Source: Thainema sp.
Lineage (GTDB): Bacteria; Cyanobacteriota; Cyanobacteriia; Phormidesmidales; Phormidesmidaceae
DNA: 64,000 nt
Direction of reading: 5' to 3'
Assembly: GCA_052168235.1 (NCBI GenBank)
Contig: JBQLZK010000034.1
Location: 1 to 64,000, forward strand
The translations under genes were made by a program, and so were the position numbers. The first letter of the stretch is position 1. Each line of letters starts with the position of its first letter. Positions 23,803 to 33,053 of the stretch are shown here, one piece after another. The notes beneath the pieces were generated by a model. It ran no database searches, had not been told where the DNA came from, and saw only the letters and a program-made list of their open reading frames with translations.

Positions 23803-23950
23803 TTGATTCATCCCAACCCACGCCCAATCAATTGATTGAGATGTTCAATTTTTGATGGAAATCGGCTATTTGACAGCCAACATCGCCCTACAACGCTCCA
23901 TCTTGTTTCACAATGTAAAGAACTGGGCCTGTAGAGATTGTTTGGAACGA

Positions 23951-24847
23951 ATGGCGCGCTTTACTCCGACTCTGATTGAAAATCTGACCGAATCGACCTC
24001 GATTGCCATGATGAAAAACATGGTGCGATCGCAGATTCCCACTCCGCTTTCGGAGCAACCGATCGAAACGGCCTACGTCAAGCAGGGCCAGTCGGACACG
24101 CCAATTGTGCTGATTGCGGGGTTTGACAGTTCGCTGCTGGAGTTTCGGCGATTGCTGCCGCTGTTGGCGACGGAGGCGGAAACTTGGGCGGTGGACATTC
24201 TGGGCTTTGGCTTTACCGATCGGCCCGCAGATGTCGAGTATTCGCCGGAGGCCATTAAGCTCCATCTGCATGCGTTTTGGCAAACGTTAATCAAGCGTCC
24301 GATAGTACTGGTCGGGGCATCAATGGGCGGGGCAGCGGCGATTGATTTTGCGCTGACCTATCCCGAATGCGTGGCGCAACTGGTGCTGCTGGATAGTGCA
24401 GGCTTTGCGGCTGGGCCGGCGATGGGTAAGCTGATGTTTCCACCGCTGGATCGCTGGGCGACCAATTTCTTAGCCAGTGCCTGGGTGCGGCAAAAGATTA
24501 GCGAGAATGCCTACTGCGATCGCGCTTTTGCCACGGAAGATGCCCGCATCTGTGCGGCACTGCATTTGGAGCATCCCAACTGGGCCAAGGCGCTGATTTC
24601 GTTTACCAAGAGCGGCGGCTACAACTTCCTCAGCGACAAAATTGCCCGAATTTCTCAAGACACGCTGATTATTTGGGGAGAACGCGATCGCATCCTCGGC
24701 ACGAAAGACGCCCACAAGTTTGAGAAGACGGTGGCCAATAGCAAACTGGTCTGGATTCCCAACTGTGGCCATGTGCCGCATCTGGAGAAGCCTCAAGAGA
24801 CGGCTCAGCCAATTCTAGAGTTTCAGCGGCAGGGATTGACGGTTTAA
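23951..24847 (+). CDS. alpha/beta fold hydrolase
   Basis: GFDSS, D..GFG, nucleophile elbow GASMGG, CGHVPH. Confidence 0.9.
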   Translation: MARFTPTLIENLTESTSIAMMKNMVRSQIPTPLSEQPIETAYVKQGQSDTPIVLIAGFDSSLLEFRRLLPLLATEAETWAVDILGFGFTDRPADVEYSPEAIKLHLHAFWQTLIKRPIVLVGASMGGAAAIDFALTYPECVAQLVLLDSAGFAAGPAMGKLMFPPLDRWATNFLASAWVRQKISENAYCDRAFATEDARICAALHLEHPNWAKALISFTKSGGYNFLSDKIARISQDTLIIWGERDRILGTKDAHKFEKTVANSKLVWIPNCGHVPHLEKPQETAQPILEFQRQGLTV

Positions 24848-25974
24848 GTTGCGCTGCTTGTTTGGTTACTGTGATGGTGGATCACGGGCAAGGGAGAATA
24901 CGCTTTGTTGGCAGATCCAGCGGCATTCAAGAATTTATCGATGATTTCCTGCTGATGCAGAATCCGTGCCTCTAGGGGATGAATGGGGCCAGGTGTGTAG
25001 ACGCCGCTGGCATAACCCCGCTGCACCTGTTCGGTGATGGCCATGTCTTCAGCCATGAAGGTTTCGAACTCGTCTAGAAGCTGATCGACGGATGAACTGA
25101 GAGCGGGGATGCCATATACTTCCAGGTGAATGGTGCAGGTGTTCACCGTGACTGGATCAATTCGTATCCAAGCCAGGATGCCGTTTGGGAGTGCCAGCAG
25201 GTGCAGATTGGGGAAGATACCAAAGGTGAAAAAGCCGAGGCGGTTGCGATCGCACAAATGCTCCAGTGTCGAATTCTCGGCTCGCCAGCGGGGTGTTGTC
25301 GGCGTGTATAGATAATTCACGAAGCGGTCAAACTGATGTTCGTACTGGTTGACAGGGCCTTGAATCTTGTGCAGCGTGTGGCGATGGGTCACGGCAACGT
25401 GATAGTCGCATAGGGTGTTGTCGTGATAGACCTTCCAGTTGCAGGCGACGGTGTAAGTTTTGCGAATGAGGGGTTGAGTGTCGGCGGTGCGATAGCCCTG
25501 AATGGTTTCTGGGATGGGTGATAAGAACTCGGCCAGAGGCGGTGCGTCGGCATCAAAGCTGATGAAGGCAAAATTGGCCCAGGTTTCAAGTCGAACGGCG
25601 TGAAGGGAATAGTCAGCTAAGCAAAAGTCTGCTGGAAACTGCTGCTGCGCGGCGGTACCAATCAGTTCGCCGTCTAGGGAGTAAACCCAGGCGTGATAAG
25701 GGCAGACGAGGTGCTTGGCGGATTGGGGAGTGCTGGACTGGCAGAAGGCGGCAGCGCGATGCGGGCAAACGTTGTGGTAGGCGCGCAGATCGCCGGATTG
25801 GGTTCTGACCAACAGGATGCTGCGGTTGGCAATGTCGATGGTTTGGACGGTGCTGGGGGCGAGGTGCAGGCTGTCGCCGATGTAGAGCCAGGTGCGATGG
25901 AAGATGTGGGTTTGTTCGAGGGGTGGAATGGTGGGGGAGGTGTAGAGGTGGGGGGGAAGGAGGAAGGTTGGCAT
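24844..25974 (-). CDS. Rieske non-heme iron oxygenase alpha subunit (choline monooxygenase/CntA-like)
   Basis: Rieske ligands CPH...CPYH; NWK..DN...YH....H; ED...E.VQRG. Confidence 0.9.
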   Translation of the reverse strand: MPTFLLPPHLYTSPTIPPLEQTHIFHRTWLYIGDSLHLAPSTVQTIDIANRSILLVRTQSGDLRAYHNVCPHRAAAFCQSSTPQSAKHLVCPYHAWVYSLDGELIGTAAQQQFPADFCLADYSLHAVRLETWANFAFISFDADAPPLAEFLSPIPETIQGYRTADTQPLIRKTYTVACNWKVYHDNTLCDYHVAVTHRHTLHKIQGPVNQYEHQFDRFVNYLYTPTTPRWRAENSTLEHLCDRNRLGFFTFGIFPNLHLLALPNGILAWIRIDPVTVNTCTIHLEVYGIPALSSSVDQLLDEFETFMAEDMAITEQVQRGYASGVYTPGPIHPLEARILHQQEIIDKFLNAAGSANKAYSPLPVIHHHSNQTSSAT

Positions 25975-26241
25975 TGGGAGATGCTACTGGGGAGGGTTAG
26001 TTGGGAGATGTTGGTTGGAAGATGTTAGTTGGGTGTTAGAGGTTGGTTCTGAGGGGACTAGCCCCCTCAGACTCCCCCACTGGTGCGTTCCGACGCCCCA
26101 GGCCCCCCCGGACGAGTTGATCGGTAGGTCGTGTCACAGCGCTTCGCTTTGCTGGAGTGATCGGGCGTTACCTGTGAAGGCTTCCAAGGTTTGGCGTTCC
26201 GCCAAACCGCTACACATCACAGATAGCTGTTGATGCTCACA

Positions 26242-26343
26242 GGTTATTTGTTTGGAGGGGGTCTGGGGGACGCAACCGTCCTCCAGCGGGGGCGTGGGGG
26301 CAAGCCGCCCCCACAAACGGGGTTTTCGCAACAAATTAGCTAT
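26242..26343. repeat. GC-rich hairpin mini-element with short terminal inverted repeats
   Basis: GGTTATTTGTT...AACAAATTAGC ends enclosing TGGGGGACG/CGTCCTCCA and TGGGGGC/GCCCCCA hairpins. Confidence 0.55.
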
Positions 26344-26360
26344 CCTATCGCAAACATTCC

Positions 26361-27134
26361 CTAACCCTTCACTGTGGCAACTTCCCTTCCCCTCAGCAAA
26401 TCCATAATTTCCTCCCGATACGTGTGAAACTTCGATAGTCGCTTAACGTGATAAGTGCGATCGCACGGTAAATCTATCTCAAACTCCTGCTGCACGGTTC
26501 CTGGACGAGCCGACAGCACATAGATCCGCTGAGAGAGGAAAACCGCTTCTTCGACATCGTGGGTAATCATTAAAATACTGGTGCCTGTTTGTCGCCAGAG
26601 GTCAAGCAAAAACTCCTGCATGGATTCTTTAGTTTGTACGTCCAATGCCCCGAAGGGTTCATCCATCAGCAAAATTTTGGGCTGGCAGGCCAGAGCACGT
26701 GCGATCGCAACTCGCTGTTTCATGCCGCCAGAAAGTTCTTTGGGTAGAGAACCGGCAAATTGAGTCAGGCCGACGACATTGAGATAGTAGGAGGCGCGTT
26801 GGCGACGTTCGGCTTTATCGATGCCTTGTAGTTTGAGGCCAAATTCGACGTTTTTCTGGACGGTCATCCAGGGATAAAGGGTGTAGCTTTGGAACACCAT
26901 GCCTCGGTCGGCTCCTGGGCCAATTACGGGTTGGCCATCGACGATGATTTCGCCGGAGGTAGGCTGATCGAGTCCGGCCACCAAGCGTAGCAGGGTGGAT
27001 TTACCGGAGCCGGATGCGCCAACAACGCAGACAAATTCGCCCGTTTCCACATGAAGGTTAATGTCCTTCAGCGCTACTAGGGTGCCGTTATGAACGGGAA
27101 ACTGCTTATAGAGGTGGTTAATTTCGAGGTGCAT
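26361..27134 (-). CDS. ABC transporter ATP-binding protein (NrtD/TauB-like; putative guanidine uptake)
   Basis: GASGSGKS, LSGGMKQR, LLMDEPFGALD; operon context. Confidence 0.92.
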   Translation of the reverse strand: MHLEINHLYKQFPVHNGTLVALKDINLHVETGEFVCVVGASGSGKSTLLRLVAGLDQPTSGEIIVDGQPVIGPGADRGMVFQSYTLYPWMTVQKNVEFGLKLQGIDKAERRQRASYYLNVVGLTQFAGSLPKELSGGMKQRVAIARALACQPKILLMDEPFGALDVQTKESMQEFLLDLWRQTGTSILMITHDVEEAVFLSQRIYVLSARPGTVQQEFEIDLPCDRTYHVKRLSKFHTYREEIMDLLRGREVATVKG

Positions 27135-27193
27135 AATCGATTCAAAATACTAAACAAAATAGGAGCGGAATTTATATCAATTCGGTGAGTCTC

Positions 27194-27269
27194 GTAGGTT
27201 GGATTTCGCGTTGCTCAACCCAACATTTTCAGGGCTTGTTGGGTTTCGTTATCACTCAACCCAACCTAC
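27194..27269. repeat. REP-like GTAGGTTGG...AACCCAACCTAC repeat
   Basis: Paired palindromic units; the right half recurs at 61022-61051. Confidence 0.7.
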
Positions 27270-27285
27270 AAAATTGATGACTAGC

Positions 27286-28125
27286 TCAAAATGCCCATTT
27301 ACAGGTAAATTTCAAGAGCTGACGAAAGAAGAGATCTAGGCCAAAACCAATCAGCCCCAGCACAATCAAGCAGGCAAAAATCTCATCGGTGTTGAGGAAC
27401 TTCTGAGCGAGCACAATGCGCTTACCGAGGCCAACTTCGGCGGCGAGCAGTTCCGCTACGACCACCAGGTTCCAAGATGTGGCGATGTTGATCCGGAAGG
27501 CGTCAATGATGCTGGGCACCACGTATGGCGTAATCACTTGAAACAACACCTGAGACCGTCTGCCGCCGAGAGTGTAGGTGGATTCAATCAGGTCTTTGGG
27601 CACGAACTTGACCGCATCCATAATCATCAGGATGTTGAAAAATAATGTTCCGATAAAAATCAGCGCGATCTTGGGGGCTTCACCAATGCCCAGGTAGATG
27701 ATCAGTAACGGAATAAACGCGGGCGCAGGCATGTAGCGGAGGATGCCGCTGATCGGTTCAAACAGCGATCGCACACTAGCAAAGGCTCCCATTGCAATAC
27801 CAATCGGCGTAGCAATGATGGCTGAAAGCAAAAAGCCAATGCTGACCCGCGCAAAGCTCGCACCAATGTCCTGCAAGAGAAAGCCTCGCTCCCAAAGGCT
27901 AACCAAGGCAGCAATCACATCAGCGGGACTGGGCAGAAAAACGGGATCAATTTCAGTAAACGCGGTTAGCACCCACCACAGGGTTAGGGGAATCGCAACC
28001 GATAAGATCATTAACGTCCAATTGAGGGACGCTGGAATGGCTTCTGCAATCCGCCAAAAAACCGTGGGTCTGAGCTGTCCAGCAGGTACGCTCAAGGATT
28101 TAGCGGGACCAAAGTCAGGATTCAT
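27286..28125 (-). CDS. ABC transporter permease (SsuC/TauC-like; putative guanidine uptake)
   Basis: FLPSP, RYMPAPAFIPL, VVAEL....GLG; operon context. Confidence 0.92.
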   Translation of the reverse strand: MNPDFGPAKSLSVPAGQLRPTVFWRIAEAIPASLNWTLMILSVAIPLTLWWVLTAFTEIDPVFLPSPADVIAALVSLWERGFLLQDIGASFARVSIGFLLSAIIATPIGIAMGAFASVRSLFEPISGILRYMPAPAFIPLLIIYLGIGEAPKIALIFIGTLFFNILMIMDAVKFVPKDLIESTYTLGGRRSQVLFQVITPYVVPSIIDAFRINIATSWNLVVVAELLAAEVGLGKRIVLAQKFLNTDEIFACLIVLGLIGFGLDLFFRQLLKFTCKWAF

Positions 28126-28237
28126 GATTAGAAATTAAAAATAAGTGTGCGAGGAAGCTGGGTAAGGGCGAAAGGCATTTCGCCCTCAAATAACAGGAAT
28201 TCAAAAATAGGTTGTCTAAGGATTGTGGATTAAATAG

Positions 28238-28321
28238 CCTGTAAACCGTTCTGTCCGTAGGGATACGGCATTGCCGTGTCCCTACCCAAAGATTTCACTC
28301 GTTAAAACCCGCCTTTACAGG
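28238..28321. repeat. mini-element with CCTGTAAA/TTTACAGG ends and a GTAGGG...CCCTAC REP-like hairpin
   Basis: Hairpin GTAGGGATACGGCATTGCCGTGTCCCTAC at 28257-28285. Confidence 0.65.
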
Positions 28322-28345
28322 GTGTACGACAGGGGCACTAACGAC

Positions 28346-29392
28346 TTAACCTGCCTGCGTCGCGGCGTATGCCTCAACAAAACGGCTATCGAAAAGAGTG
28401 GTCAGATCAGGTGCTTCGGGAATAAAACCAACATCCACCATGAAATTGGCCATTTCTTGAGCGGCATAGGGCATGTGCGTCATGTCATCGCCATCGCTAA
28501 AAGCCTCTAGGTTGTCCTCAAGTGTGAACATCCTGGTGCCTTCTTTCAGCATTTGCAGCTCTTCAATCGAGACATTGGCGCGGGCAGCCATGATTTCGTC
28601 GGCCCGTTCGGGATTCTCTTCCATAAAGGCGAGAATATCGAACCAGGTATTGACCATTGCTTGCGCTTGATCAGGCCGCTCGTCAACTAGCGTTTGAGTC
28701 AACACGAGTAGGTCAGGAATCGCTCCCGGATATTCTGCGGACGACAGCAATTCTTTGCTACCTTCTCGCTTCAGCGCCGTCAGCCAAAAGGGAGGAAACG
28801 CACCTACGGCATCCACTTGGCCAGCGGCAAAGGCGGCAGCAGCAGCGCCCGTTTCTAGATCAACAATTTCCACATCATCACGGGACATACCATTCTCTTC
28901 CAGGGCCAGCGTCAGCAAAAAATCATCGACGACGCCTGCTTCCACGGCCACTTTTTTGCCTGACAAGTCCTGAATCGAATTGATGTCTTCCGTGACGATA
29001 ATCTTGTCGTTGCCAGCGGAGTTGTCGTTCACCAAGACAACAACCTCGCCATTCACGGCGTCAGCGGCAAAGGAAATGGTGTCGTTCAGCGTTTGACAGT
29101 TGCCGTCAAGCTGTCCGGCGGCCAAAGCCTCCATTGACGCCAGATAGCCGTCGAACCACTTCAGCTCCACATTGGCTCCGTTTTGCTCAAATAGCCCTTC
29201 CTCTTCCGCGATCGCCCACGGCCACCAGCCCGCCCAGTTGCTATAGCCAATGACAATCGTTTCTCCGGCGGGAGCGGGAGCCACTGCATCGGGCGATTCG
29301 CTCGTCTCTTGGTTTCTGGGTGTACAGCCAACTGCGATCGCAGTTGCCAGCACAAACATGACGCAAAGCGAAAGGAGTCTGCGTAACTTCAT
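28346..29392 (-). CDS. ABC transporter substrate-binding lipoprotein (putative guanidine-binding)
   Basis: Lipobox AVGC; YSNWAGWWPW, NDNSAGND; lies in the gdmH operon. Confidence 0.88.
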   Translation of the reverse strand: MKLRRLLSLCVMFVLATAIAVGCTPRNQETSESPDAVAPAPAGETIVIGYSNWAGWWPWAIAEEEGLFEQNGANVELKWFDGYLASMEALAAGQLDGNCQTLNDTISFAADAVNGEVVVLVNDNSAGNDKIIVTEDINSIQDLSGKKVAVEAGVVDDFLLTLALEENGMSRDDVEIVDLETGAAAAAFAAGQVDAVGAFPPFWLTALKREGSKELLSSAEYPGAIPDLLVLTQTLVDERPDQAQAMVNTWFDILAFMEENPERADEIMAARANVSIEELQMLKEGTRMFTLEDNLEAFSDGDDMTHMPYAAQEMANFMVDVGFIPEAPDLTTLFDSRFVEAYAATQAG

Positions 29393-29470
29393 CAACTTTC
29401 CTCAAAAACAAAACTTCAATCACAGAGAACACGCAACAGGTCACCCACAACAGCCAATCCACCTTTGAAC

Positions 29471-29505
29471 CCAATCCAAAAATCGGCAATCCAAAATCCA
29501 AAATC
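29471..29505. repeat. short tandem heptamer repeat (AATCCAA, STRR-like)
   Basis: CAATCCAAAAATCGGCAATCCAAAATCCAAAATC. Confidence 0.5.
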
Positions 29506-30196
29506 AAATCAAGGCAGGTTCAGTTTGGTGGATCAGGTGAGATCGCACCCAGTCGTACCAGCTATCTAACCCTTCGCCTGTTTTGGTCGAAACCGGGATA
29601 ATCGCGCAGTGGGGATTCATCTGGCGGACGTTGGCTTCAATTTGGGCCAAGTCCACATCTAGGTAAGGCACAAGATCAATTTTGGTGATCAGCAGACAGT
29701 TAGCTTCTTGGAACATCACCGGATATTTCAGCGGTTTGTCCTCTCCTTCTGTGACGCTCAGGAGTGCGACCTTGGCGTGTTCGCCCACTTCAAACTCGGC
29801 TGGGCACACAAGATTGCCAACGTTTTCCACCAGCACCAGGTCAAACTGATTGGGATCGTACTGGTGGCTGAGCTGATGAATGCCGCCCGCCACCATCTTG
29901 GAATCGAGATGGCAAGAGCGTCCGGTGTTGATAGCAATCACGGGTACACCATGCTGCCGGATGCGTTCGGCATCCAGTTCCGTGGTCATATCGCCTTCAA
30001 TCACGGCAATCTTCAAATCAGCGCTCAGTGTGGCAATGGTGCGCTCTAGCAGTGCAGTTTTGCCTGCTCCTGGGCTGCTCATAACGTTGAAGCAGGTGAT
30101 ACCCCACTCGTCGAAATGTTCGCGGTTGTGATCGGCTCCTTCCTGATTCGCATGGAGCAGATTAATTCCCAGAGCGGCGTCTACGGTTTGATGCAT
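29504..30196 (-). CDS. hypB: HypB-type Ni-insertion GTPase (guanidine hydrolase accessory, GhaB-like)
   Basis: [35 protein letters not shown]. Confidence 0.92.
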
Positions 30197-30279
30197 AAGA
30201 ATACAGCGTTAACGGTGTTGATTTCGAAAAATTGAACAAAATACGGTCTTGGTGAGGCTGAAATGGCTTAAGCGAGTGA

Positions 30280-30648
30280 TTACGGCGAATAGCTCGCAGC
30301 AGTGGCATATTCCACCCGATCAATTTTCAGCTCACGGCCCGAACGGATATCTTCCATCGGGCTGCCGCAGTCGGGGCAGGCGTAGCGCAGGCCAATTTCG
30401 GGCTGATACTCCTGCTGGCAGGGATGACAATAGGCAATCAGTGGCACATCTTGAATCACCAATTCGGCTCCGTCTAAAAACGTGCCGCGCGTTTGGGCAT
30501 CAAAGGCAAACTGGAGACCAGCGGGTTCCACGCAGGTAAACTGCCCCACGACCAGATGCACCTTCGCAATGGGCTGCTGCTCCGCTTGCGACTCCCACCA
30601 GTCGCGCAGGGTGATAATCAGCGCTTTGGTCATATCAACTTCATGCAT
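30280..30648 (-). CDS. hypA: HypA-type Ni metallochaperone (GhaA-like)
   Basis: N-terminal MHE, two CxxC motifs, SGREL. Confidence 0.92.
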   Translation of the reverse strand: MHEVDMTKALIITLRDWWESQAEQQPIAKVHLVVGQFTCVEPAGLQFAFDAQTRGTFLDGAELVIQDVPLIAYCHPCQQEYQPEIGLRYACPDCGSPMEDIRSGRELKIDRVEYATAASYSP

Positions 30649-30658
30649 GGGTCATCTC

Positions 30659-31834
30659 CTACTGCCACGGTTCATCGACAACTTGCGCTTCCTCATGGAT
30701 GTAGTTAGGTTTGCCGTTGCGCGGTAGCTGACCGGACAGCACCAAATGCGCCATCGTGTCGCAAATCACGCGGGTCGCCATTAGCGAGGTCATGTCGCTG
30801 ACATCGTAGGGTGGGGACACTTCTACGACTTCGAGGCCGCAAACAGGAGCTTTTTGCACAATTTTGCCCAGTAGATACAGTGCCTCGCGCGGCAGCAGGC
30901 CACCGGGTTCTGGCCAGCCCGTTCCAGGGACGAATCCGGCATCAATACAGTCAATATCGAAGCTAATCCACACGCAGTCGGTACCATCTAGCGCTCGCTC
31001 TAAGGCAAAATCTACGGCGGCATCTAGCCCCATTTCTGTAATATCGGTGACGGTCAGGATATTGGTGCTGCGCTCTCGGCAAACTTTCACGCCGGGGCGA
31101 GGCACTTGCCAGCCGCCAATTCCCAGTTGCACTAGGTTCTTTGCAGGCGCGTTGGCCATGTTGGTCGCATGGAACCAGGGGCAGGTGTGCATCCGCTCAT
31201 CCAAGTCCGTTTCCTGTGTATCCACATGGCGGTCAAAGTGGATAATGCCAACTTTCTTGTCGCCCAGGTGACGGCAAACGCCCCGCACTGTGGGGAAGCC
31301 AATGGAGTGGTCGCCGCCTAGGATGATGGGGAACGCGCCGGAGCTGAAAATATGGGAAATGCCTTTGGAAATTTGGTCGAACGACTTTTCGTTATTCGCC
31401 GGAATCGTGAAGATATCGCCCACGTCGCACAGGGTAATTTGCTCCCGCAGATCCACGCCTAGCTCGAAGTTGTAGGGCGTATACAGGGCTGAAATCCGCC
31501 GAATGCCCTGTGGCCCAAACCGCGTACCGGGTCGATAGGTCGTGCCGGAATCGTGGGGCACCCCCACAATCGCCACATCGTACTCGCCCACCTTCCGCAC
31601 GTCTTCTAGATAGGGCGCTTTCAAAAAAGTATTGATGCCTGCAAAGTGAGGCAGTTCGCCTCGTGAGAAGGTAGAAATTGTGCGATCGCGGATGCTCTCA
31701 GCTGCTTCCAGACCATACTCTAAGCCTTTGGACACTTCCTGCTGCCAGCCCGTCATCGGCAGCTGGGTTTCTTTTTGTAAGGCTCGTTGAGCTTCGGTAT
31801 CCCCTGGATTTTGAAACAATGATTCGTCAGTCAT
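30659..31834 (-). CDS. gdmH: Ni-dependent guanidine hydrolase (ureohydrolase/agmatinase family)
   Basis: GGDHS, HFDRHVD, SFDIDC.D; riboswitch upstream and hypA-hypB-ABC downstream, as in the characterised Synechocystis gdmH operon. Confidence 0.88.
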   Translation of the reverse strand: MTDESLFQNPGDTEAQRALQKETQLPMTGWQQEVSKGLEYGLEAAESIRDRTISTFSRGELPHFAGINTFLKAPYLEDVRKVGEYDVAIVGVPHDSGTTYRPGTRFGPQGIRRISALYTPYNFELGVDLREQITLCDVGDIFTIPANNEKSFDQISKGISHIFSSGAFPIILGGDHSIGFPTVRGVCRHLGDKKVGIIHFDRHVDTQETDLDERMHTCPWFHATNMANAPAKNLVQLGIGGWQVPRPGVKVCRERSTNILTVTDITEMGLDAAVDFALERALDGTDCVWISFDIDCIDAGFVPGTGWPEPGGLLPREALYLLGKIVQKAPVCGLEVVEVSPPYDVSDMTSLMATRVICDTMAHLVLSGQLPRNGKPNYIHEEAQVVDEPWQ

Positions 31835-31943
31835 GAACTCAGGCACCTAAATAAATTGGGTCGAATCTGTTATAGGTCAATGCCAGCAATCGCGAGCGAA
31901 AATTTTGCCCCAGATTCCCATTCAATCAACAAAAATTAGCTAC

Positions 31944-32000
31944 AAAAAAACCGGGGAAACGCAAACAAAGCTGCTAACCTTGCTGCTGTTTCTCCCGGGC
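31944..32000 (-). terminator. riboswitch expression-platform terminator
   Basis: On the minus strand CCGGGAGAAAC...GTTTCCCCGG then TTTTTTT; the 5' arm overlaps the aptamer 3' tail. Confidence 0.85.
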
Positions 32001-32222
32001 TTTTATCCCGCCGTGTGACCAAGTTTGTCACGTCAACTGGTGCAAATTACTTGGCTGCCCCTCTTGGACCAGACACGATGGCTATATCTTGCAAATCCGT
32101 CAATAAAAACCGAGTAATAGTTTGGATGAGAGGCAGACTTCGCCTGCCTCTCATCCAAACTATGCTGGGATCTCATAACCGGAACTTGCATGAGACATTG
32201 CTAAAGCCGGAACCCTAGAAGC
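31990..32222 (-). ncRNA. guanidine-I (ykkC-yxkD) riboswitch with a large insertion
   Basis: Minus-strand CTAGGGTTCCG ... CTGGTCCAAGAG ... ACACGGCGGGATAAAAGCCCGGGAG. Confidence 0.93.
32089..32191. mobile_element. ~103-bp mini-element (terminal inverted repeats + hairpin) inside the riboswitch
   Basis: Perfect 20-bp hairpin at 32117-32163; flanks resemble the elements at 40766-40866 and 57310-57400. Confidence 0.6.
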
Positions 32223-32290
32223 AATTTTGGATGAATTAAAGAGTTTGAGTTGTCTAGTCCAAGAAATACCAATCTGCCGCTGAGGCAGAG

Positions 32291-32304
32291 GTAGCTTCTG
32301 ATAC
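32291..32304 (-). promoter_or_regulatory. NtcA binding site
   Basis: Perfect GTA-N8-TAC (GTAGCTTCTGATAC), 22 nt upstream of a weak -10 (TATTTC) oriented toward the riboswitch. Confidence 0.8.
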
Positions 32305-32416
32305 AAAAATGGAAATCGTTCAGCTCAAACGCTTGATGTGGACAGAACCAGCCAGTTTTTCGGCACCTGCCATCTTTCGTTACAATAGTTAACTAAGCAA
32401 AACTTAAAGTATTCAA

Positions 32417-32612: not shown

Positions 32613-32645
32613 AATCCTCAATCCGTCGTAGTTTAGTTGCCCACG

Positions 32646-33053
32646 ATGTCCTCGACTCCTCAAACCATTCAGTACCCACCCTCGACGCTGGCTCGTGCTG
32701 AGCGAGCCGTGCGCTGTAGCCCATTTCGACCTCAGCTCTTCACAACGATTCAGTGGCAAAGCGTGGAGCTACGTGCGATCGCATCTGAGCGAGGCGTGCG
32801 TAATGGCTATACCACTCGCGCTTTGCCCGAACTAGTGGCTGAAACCGAATTGCTCTGGCTAATTCAAGTCGGCCTCCTGCGGCGTGAGGTCGATGGTCAG
32901 GGCTTAACCGATAGCTTCCGCTTGACCCCCTTGGGACGGCAACTGGTGCGCCGCTGGGAACAGCAAAGAGACAAATCTCTATCTGCTTCCTGGCTTGACC
33001 AGCTATTAAATTGGCTGAATCGCTGGTTCCGTCGGCCAAGTTGGTTGTCATAG
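32646..33053 (+). CDS. Npun_F0494 family conserved cyanobacterial protein
   Basis: RAERAVRCSPF, LLWLIQVGLLRREVDGQGLTDSFRLTPLG. Confidence 0.8.
   Translation: MSSTPQTIQYPPSTLARAERAVRCSPFRPQLFTTIQWQSVELRAIASERGVRNGYTTRALPELVAETELLWLIQVGLLRREVDGQGLTDSFRLTPLGRQLVRRWEQQRDKSLSASWLDQLLNWLNRWFRRPSWLS

Follow-up and report, generated by a model that had tools for sequence, protein, structure and literature searches.

Guanidine assimilation in cyanobacteria was worked out only between 2021 and 2025, and the demethylation of methylguanidine was described only in 2025, for an enzyme family different from the one considered here. In the published account for Synechocystis sp. PCC 6803, gdmH, ghaA and ghaB, together with the transporter genes gimABC, make up sll1077-sll1082, and a guanidine-I riboswitch and NtcA promoters accompany them (PMC12704784); the main text of this 2025 PNAS paper on gimABC contains no occurrence of the word “oxygenase.” The second system comes from Vreelandella boliviensis, in which, as reported by Sinn et al. 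2025 (PMC12508155), a guanidine carboxylase operon under riboswitch control is extended by mgdH and mgdL: the hydroxylation of methylguanidine is the work of MgdH, a 2-oxoglutarate dioxygenase, and MgdL, a beta-barrel protein with catalytic residues D49 and R51, converts N-(hydroxymethyl)guanidine, an unusually stable hemiaminal, to guanidine and formaldehyde. “Rieske” appears nowhere in the main text of that report. A third is the picocyanobacterial “guanidinase” cluster of Doré et al. 2023 (PMC10119275), which contains a putative Rieske Fe-S protein (CK_00002251) from which iron use was inferred and for which the description of the cluster proposes no reaction. Here, we analyze a 64,000-nt stretch of DNA from the cyanobacterium Thainema sp. 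(positions 1-64,000 of contig JBQLZK010000034.1, assembly GCA_052168235.1; hereafter, the window, to which all coordinates refer), whose minus strand carries an NtcA box, a guanidine-I aptamer with terminator, gdmH, hypA/hypB (ghaAB), gimABC and, as a seventh co-directional gene, a Rieske oxygenase. The most economical explanation of this last gene is that it encodes a Rieske-type methylguanidine N-demethylase that would supply guanidine to GdmH. Literature searches found no published reaction assignment for this Rieske protein; the gene link was already printed for marine picocyanobacteria (Doré 2023), with no function attached, and the proposal would assign a known pathway step to a new enzyme family.

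The window cluster resembles that of Synechocystis, as published, in having the same six genes in the same order, the same riboswitch class, an NtcA box and conserved predicted pocket residues in GimA. It differs in its seventh gene, which is missing from the Synechocystis cluster as presented by Doré et al. (PMC10119275), in an insertion of about 125 nt within the aptamer, and in the region before gimA, where a motif scan of the window found no NtcA box. As in the MgdH/MgdL module reported for V. boliviensis, an oxygenase is added to a riboswitch-controlled operon for guanidine degradation and import, and in five relatives it is paired with a gene of the MgdL family. Unlike the dioxygenase of that module, which uses 2-oxoglutarate and Fe(II), the window enzyme is a non-homologous Rieske protein, and its operon encodes the GdmH route rather than the carboxylase. 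The gene order gdmH-hypA-hypB-ABC-Rieske (ABC, ATP-binding cassette) is that of the picocyanobacterial cluster, which we verified in nine sampled genomes, in Synechococcus sp. UW140 and in Prochlorococcus records; the picocyanobacterial Rieske proteins are 28-39% identical to that of the window, are without about 17 of its residues and keep an Asp at the bridging position.

The product of the seventh gene is predicted to be a Rieske non-heme iron oxygenase alpha subunit, with both the Rieske motif and the 2-His-1-carboxylate site of that class. The Rieske ligands C70, H72, C91 and H94 (C-x-H ... C-x-x-H) are invariant in 18 of the 18 aligned clade members, and the iron triad H192, H197 and D310, also invariant, aligns with H208, H213 and D323 of CntA. 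The best sequence matches in the PDB are Stc2 (E of 3.9e-29) and CntA (about 1e-25), and an AlphaFold (AF2) model built from 18 clade sequences (predicted local distance difference test [pLDDT] of 90.3) finds its best fold matches in the same two proteins (template modeling [TM] score of 0.77-0.82 for CntA; overall range for the best folds, 0.73-0.82). The protein thus shares with the group V enzymes (CntA, PDB 6y8j/6y9d; Stc2, 3vca/4quq; and GbcA) an alpha-only architecture of Rieske plus catalytic domain, with E values from 4e-29 to 1e-25, but the identity is only 22-25%, and the substrate-proximal residues differ. Mapped by an ungapped alignment from N-W-K to Y-H, CntA Y203 (the pi-cation contact) is replaced by T187, which is invariant in the clade; E205 (the essential bridging glutamate) by C189; C206 (about 4.4 Å from the substrate ammonium) by D190, also invariant; and C209 (the second Cys of the pair) by V193. 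According to the CntA papers, group V is marked by a bridging Glu three residues before the first iron His, by an aromatic pi-cation residue (confined to subgroup Va and missing from subgroup Vb as well) and, in some members, by a Cys pair. The window protein has neither the bridging Glu, the aromatic residue nor the Cys-x-x-Cys; it scores 128.6 bits against the NCBIfam GbcA equivalog, whose cut-off is 670, and matches that model only in its N-terminal half; and its gene has no neighboring reductase gene of the CntB/GbcB type. The “quaternary-amine type” of the initial annotation therefore describes the nearest relatives of the enzyme, CntA and Stc2, but not its active site, where the residues characteristic of the group are replaced. 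An aspartate at the cation-facing position would suit guanidinium. In agreement with the initial annotation, which saw no adjacent reductase gene, Pfam detects no reductase or ferredoxin gene among the window neighbors of the Rieske gene, and no such domain occurs in the Pfam-annotated loci of six relatives (L039, L044, L045, L047, L051 and L054; here and below, L and G are our handles for loci and genomes).

The evidence that carries the proposed function is genomic linkage. Among 401 genomes drawn evenly from the class, 49 contain a match to the Rieske protein at an E value of ≤1e-40, and 32 of these carry members of its clade: 23 with orthologues of at least 47% identity (the window genome included) and 9 picocyanobacterial genomes at 33-39%. 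The other matches are paralogues, of 38-44% identity in 5 genomes and about 30% in 12. GdmH (E ≤ 1e-80) is present in 190 of the 401 genomes. We retrieved the flanks of 37 loci and mapped the window proteins onto them. In 28 of the 32 clade genomes, the Rieske gene abuts NitT/TauT-type ABC genes, and in 27 it stands directly beside GimABC-like genes, either co-directionally after gimC (24 genomes) or divergent from gimA (3 genomes). Elsewhere, a 54%-identical orthologue ends a different ABC operon with an isochorismatase-family hydrolase (G281; L045, 7363-11906), where the GimA pocket residues are missing from the binding protein and a different contig carries gdmH; in G184 and G163, a guanidine carboxylase island surrounds the gene, and the ABC genes are at a distance of 3-5 kb; no ABC or guanidine carboxylase neighbor was seen at the Rieske locus of G356; and in G045 the gene is at the start of a contig, so that its neighborhood is not assessable. 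The genes gdmH-hypA-hypB are in the same cluster as the Rieske gene in 19 of the 32 genomes; three contigs are too short, and three genomes have gdmH on another contig. GdmH is absent from the remaining seven, in five of which (G114, G128, G065, G184 and G163) the Rieske gene occurs with a urea/guanidine carboxylase gene and two DUF1989 (CgdAB-type) genes, joined in G114, G128 and G065 by allophanate hydrolase. The Rieske gene is optional, in that 9 of 19 Rieske-less genomes, picked for their long contigs, have a gdmH-hypAB-gimABC cluster that ends without it. Overall, the Rieske gene travels with guanidine import and with either known guanidine-degrading route, GdmH or carboxylase/CgdAB. The survey proposed with the initial annotation thus gave a positive answer, tying this Rieske clade to guanidine genes across many cyanobacterial families and confirming that orthologues are linked to gdmH outside the window genome, and it supports the idea, put forward there, that the enzyme would act on alkylguanidines.

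The same distribution could be read in another way, namely, that the enzyme N-oxygenates (N-hydroxylates) guanidine or a close analogue, for detoxification or as a route independent of GdmH. Rieske N-oxygenases exist, the tightest partner of the gene is the guanidine importer rather than gdmH, and genomes that have no gdmH can still keep the gene. However, all of the gdmH-less genomes whose context is long enough have the carboxylase route for free guanidine, which would make a second route needless, and the MgdL-type neighbors described below do not fit such a reaction; we consider this reading very unlikely.

A wider search of contigs was dominated by the generic Rieske pattern, and we kept 80 of 566 confirmed loci, 75 of them non-cyanobacterial with proteins of 26-38% identity. 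None of these 75 shows the gdmH-gim arrangement, and a carboxylase-like or ureohydrolase-like gene is nearby only in L112, L139 and L147, so that this search did not carry the link beyond cyanobacteria. In a midpoint-rooted FastTree phylogeny of 112 sequences, the cyanobacterial members form one clade, apart from 74 non-cyanobacterial relatives, that comprises the guanidine-linked orthologues, the picocyanobacterial group and the 38-44% paralogues, with the window genome's own 31% paralogue falling outside. These results bear on the possibility that the protein is an ordinary quaternary-amine oxygenase, of the type known for choline, betaine or carnitine, which plays no part in guanidine chemistry and merely shares its regulation with nitrogen scavenging. 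Its top sequence and structure matches, Stc2, CntA and GbcA, are what this would predict, but the GbcA score is far below the cut-off, Y203, E205 and the Cys pair of CntA are all replaced, and the gdmH-gim arrangement, consistent in the cyanobacterial clade, is found in 0 of the 75 non-cyanobacterial relatives; among the alternatives, we hold this one to be the least probable. The sister paralogues within the cyanobacterial clade (38-44% identity, with the same L-C-D-Y-H motif; L057, L058, L059 and L060) adjoin an NNMT/PNMT/TEMT-family methyltransferase gene in three of four loci, and sensor kinase genes as well.

A second line of evidence comes from neighbors that resemble the lyase of the V. 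boliviensis pathway. Two formerly unannotated open reading frames (ORFs) beside the Rieske gene, one downstream (L047:10685-11425) and one upstream (L039:8564-9394), are weakly similar to each other (E of 2e-5) and share the conserved MgdL blocks, including the catalytic D-x-R, a homology call based on motifs read by eye against the published alignment (PMC12508155, supplementary file 3). That alignment includes proteins of Oculatella and Leptolyngbya (E of 1.7e-19 and 5.7e-18, respectively; PMC12508155), the latter closely similar to the L039 ORF. A profile built from five MgdL-like ORFs detects the family in 24 of the 401 genomes, and an MgdL-like gene directly flanks the Rieske orthologue in G354, G375, G184, G163 and G265, as well as in a Tildeniella torsiva record (L072). 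The copy in G265 (L046) has an internal TGA, a sign of decay. An MgdL-type neighbor is what a methylguanidine hydroxylase would need.

In the published account of the importer, W59, W62, D135 and D233 of Sll1080 are proposed to bind guanidinium (PMC12704784), and their counterparts in the window GimA, W54, W57, D130 and D228, are kept unchanged in 38-40 of 40 aligned proteins of the GimA type; the correspondence follows from a constant numbering offset of 5 rather than from an alignment with Sll1080, and F205 was not placed. Both the importer and the lyase-like genes are relevant to the alternative that the oxygenase frees guanidine from another substituted guanidine, by hydroxylating the carbon bonded to the guanidino nitrogen (in agmatine, guanidinobutyrate, taurocyamine, creatine or an arginine derivative, for example), or from guanylurea-type or creatinine-derived compounds. 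The linkage evidence applies to such substrates equally, CntA itself cleaves a C-N bond via hydroxylation of the alpha carbon, the G281 (L045) orthologue belongs to another ABC system, one that includes a hydrolase of the isochorismatase family, and islands in G126 and G295 join Rieske paralogues with creatininase, isochorismatase, glutamine synthetase (GS)-like and MgdL-like genes. An MgdL-type neighbor, however, implies a hydroxymethyl intermediate, and unchanged GimA pocket residues suit very small substituents only; we therefore regard a larger substrate as unlikely, although less so than the other alternatives.

The reading that we favor, to which we would give about an even chance, is that the window enzyme is a Rieske-type N-demethylase of methylguanidine or another small alkylguanidine, a non-homologous analogue of MgdH that feeds GdmH. 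An alpha-only monooxygenase and, by function, part of the guanidine assimilation cluster, it would hydroxylate the N-methyl group of methylguanidine, and perhaps of dimethylguanidine or other small N-alkylguanidines; the resulting N-(hydroxymethyl)guanidine would break down to guanidine and formaldehyde, spontaneously here and with the help of an MgdL-type lyase in some relatives; and GdmH would then split guanidine into urea and ammonium. Electrons would probably come from a ferredoxin encoded elsewhere, and expression may depend on the NtcA promoter and guanidine-I riboswitch through read-through from gimC or on a start inside the repeat inserted before the gene. We favor this reading because the gene is linked to guanidine import and breakdown genes and to both degradation routes, because MgdL-type genes flank it in some relatives, because the published MgdH/MgdL operon offers a precedent for the extension of a guanidine operon for methylguanidine use (PMC12508155), because a separate Rieske-containing operon at L047 has a guanidine-I riboswitch of its own, because CntA and Stc2 oxidize N-methyl groups or alpha carbons of cationic amines, and because the metal ligands are intact and an invariant aspartate, D190, occupies the position of CntA C206.

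Several observations weigh against it. Unlike the MgdH/MgdL module, the window genome yielded no MgdL homologue, whether searched with a single protein or with the five-sequence profile, and none was found in G093, a genome of the same genus, or in any of the nine picocyanobacterial loci examined. Of 10 further loci with MgdL-like genes, 8 show no oxygenase gene as neighbor, which means that the family is not confined to this role. The predicted pocket residues of GimA are the same in clusters with and without the Rieske gene, and we rejected the idea of an importer adapted to a larger substrate. At position 189, the window protein and all 21 orthologue-group sequences shown have Cys, and the 9 picocyanobacterial proteins have Asp, where CntA has its bridging glutamate. 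In the window genome, a structured repeat of about 310 nt parts the Rieske gene from gimC. Nor does the riboswitch always precede the oxygenase: in G114 (L051), the riboswitch is downstream of the Rieske gene, ahead of DUF1989 genes, and in G184 it precedes the DUF1989-carboxylase operon only, so that in neither genome is the oxygenase under the aptamer found. Finally, the guanidine-I riboswitch of V. boliviensis is reported not to bind methylguanidine (PMC12508155).

More tentatively, with a likelihood that we place somewhat below even, the clade as a whole may constitute a new Rieske monooxygenase subfamily adapted from quaternary amines to guanidinium substrates (with Asp in place of the cation-facing Cys and the canonical bridge absent from most members) that, independently of the MgdH route, opens methylated guanidines as a nitrogen source to many cyanobacteria, including marine Synechococcus and some Prochlorococcus. 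If a Rieske enzyme does carry out the same step as MgdH, this would be a case of non-orthologous displacement, the subfamily would possess an unusual electron-transfer bridge, and the finding would point to methylated guanidines as nitrogen sources for abundant phototrophs of aquatic habitats. Such a role would further account for the absence of the picocyanobacterial guanidine cluster from low-iron ocean regions, a link raised by Doré et al. 2023 (PMC10119275).

The elements listed in the initial annotation (NtcA box, guanidine-I riboswitch, ureohydrolase, hypA, hypB, three ABC genes and the co-directional Rieske gene) are all present on the minus strand, where genes were called from an ORF listing together with Pfam and NCBIfam scans (Table 1). 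The arginase-family protein matches over its full length a solved structure entitled “agmatinase 2” (PDB 7esr/7oi1), which we take to be Synechocystis Sll1077/GdmH. That title is consistent with the remark of Doré et al. that sll1077 was originally annotated as an agmatinase (PMC10119275). GdmH orthologues in relatives are 81-98% identical to the window protein.

Table 1. Features of the guanidine locus and its flanks in the Thainema sp. window
Feature	Position	Strand	Evidence or remark
Alpha/beta-hydrolase gene	23852-24847	+	Converges on Rieske gene; 4-bp overlap at the stop codons
Rieske non-heme iron oxygenase alpha subunit (predicted), 376 aa	24844..25974	-	PF00355 2.5e-16 and PF00848 5.5e-24
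Dispersed repeat element, about 310 nt	26026..26336	.	Between gimC and Rieske gene
gimC-like ABC ATPase	26361..27134	-	PF00005
gimB-like ABC permease	27286..28125	-	PF00528
gimA-like substrate-binding protein (NitT/TauT, SsuA/NMT1 family)	28346..29395	-	Pfam/NCBIfam
hypB-type Ni GTPase (ghaB)	29504..30196	-	TIGR00073, 309 bits
hypA-type Ni metallochaperone (ghaA)	30280..30648	-	TIGR00100, 116.6 bits vs cut-off 88.1
gdmH, Ni-dependent guanidine hydrolase (arginase family)	30659..31846	-	PF00491 1.1e-76; PDB 7esr/7oi1, E 1.1e-239, full length
Intrinsic terminator, hairpin and U7 (expression platform)	31944..31998	-	-27.4 kcal/mol, z -3.8
Guanidine-I aptamer (RF00442)	31990..32220	-	37.6 bits, E 5.9e-5, vs Rfam gathering score 63
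Aptamer insertion, ~125 nt, apical P1 hairpin	about 32077-32199	-	Alignment with four aptamers
-10-like TATTTC	32263-32268	-	22 nt downstream of NtcA-type box
NtcA-type box GTA-N8-TAC	32291..32304	-	Upstream of riboswitch
Npun_F0494-family protein, 138 aa (orf138)	32637-33053	+	NF045586, 166 bits; divergent from guanidine leader

The leader is predicted to be a guanidine-I riboswitch despite a score that misses the Rfam gathering threshold, the aptamer being recovered at an E-value threshold. When aligned with the aptamers of four relatives, which pass gathering at 64-89 bits, it has all of the conserved cores, and its low score is due to the apical insertion, within which lies a perfect 21-bp palindrome (32118-32162). 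RNA contigs of a relative about 91% identical to the window have 23 nt in place of the 123 nt at 32077-32199 (these contigs come from three metatranscriptome runs of one study, at 0.05-0.07 of sampled words, and were compared over 24500-32400). The terminator hairpin overlaps the 3' strand of the aptamer, as a transcriptional ON switch would have it. Upstream, GTA-N8-TAC motifs occur in the window at the level of chance (6 found, 4.6 expected), and the full NtcA box precedes the riboswitch in three of five other loci checked (L038, L041 and L047), with a GT-N10-AC variant in the remaining two (L055 and L051). The separate operon of G354 (L047), in the order GS-like gene, gimABC, Rieske gene and MgdL-like gene, has its own guanidine-I riboswitch, at 78 bits.

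The gap between gimC and the Rieske gene is 386 bp long (25975-26360), close to the 390 bp originally given for it, and, as then described, it is filled by repeats: a dispersed repeat makes up about 310 nt, and a consensus scan lists no terminator-like or promoter-like site on its minus strand. Six near-full copies of the repeat (81-86% identity) and partial ones occur elsewhere in the window's own genome, across which copies were counted, and a copy of 92% identity occupies the corresponding place in G093. The RNA of the gap folds strongly (-144 kcal/mol; z score of -3.2). Among the 24 co-directional loci, with start codons selected by script, the Rieske gene begins -7 to +16 bp after the gimC stop codon at 18; three loci have spacings of 54-92 bp, another has 305 bp, and the spacing in G093 is 364 bp. 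Given these short distances in relatives, the ancestral state is a tightly coupled last gene, with the gap as a secondary insertion in this genus. Metatranscriptome contigs of the 91%-identical relative cover gdmH to gimA, gimB and gimC on separate contigs and none lies on the Rieske gene, although such contigs cannot show absence. Two other operon spacers (27140-27285 and 28196-28345) contain dispersed repeats with very high summed metatranscriptome contig depth, which suggests that they are multi-copy elements.

The insertion raises the prospect that the gene has been uncoupled or is decaying in the window genome, with the repeat blocking read-through and the oxygenase silent or in another regulon. 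Besides the gap itself (386 bp here and 364 bp in G093, versus at most 16 bp in most relatives) and its strong structure, two observations favor this view: the Rieske protein is 90-92% identical between the two members of the genus, versus 92-98% for the other operon proteins, and the gene of G190 (L056) has lost its frame near the C-terminus, a sign of decay. The window ORF, however, is intact and keeps all ligands and clade-invariant residues, its model is confident, and the scan of the gap shows no terminator-like site; we judge such uncoupling or decay to be quite unlikely.

A GS-like ligase, whose score exceeds the threshold set for NCBIfam TIGR03105 (“type III glutamate--ammonia ligase”), recurs in the guanidine clusters of relatives (L039, L040, L042, L043, L047, L048, L061-L063, L069, L072, L073 and L152); the window operon is without it, and the best copy in the genome, 42% identical, is elsewhere. 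The islands of G126 (L179) and G295 (L180) contain a GS-like ligase gene, two Rieske paralogues (27-28% identity), and ABC, MgdL-like and isochorismatase-like genes, and at L179, the only one of the two to be annotated with Pfam, two creatininase-family genes and a fatty-acid-desaturase-like gene are present as well.

On its other side, the Rieske gene of the window is flanked by the convergent alpha/beta-hydrolase gene, and an inositol monophosphatase gene is also a neighbor. The hydrolase was rejected as a conserved partner, its position being kept only in the same-genus genome; the hydrolase beside the Rieske orthologue of G184 belongs to an unrelated, MetX-like family. The small gene divergent from the guanidine leader, orf138, was likewise rejected as a lyase candidate, as it belongs to the Npun_F0494 family and has no MgdL motifs. 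Homologues of this protein (47-95% identity) occupy the same position by guanidine operons at L038, L047, L048, L056, L072, L156, L163 and L169.

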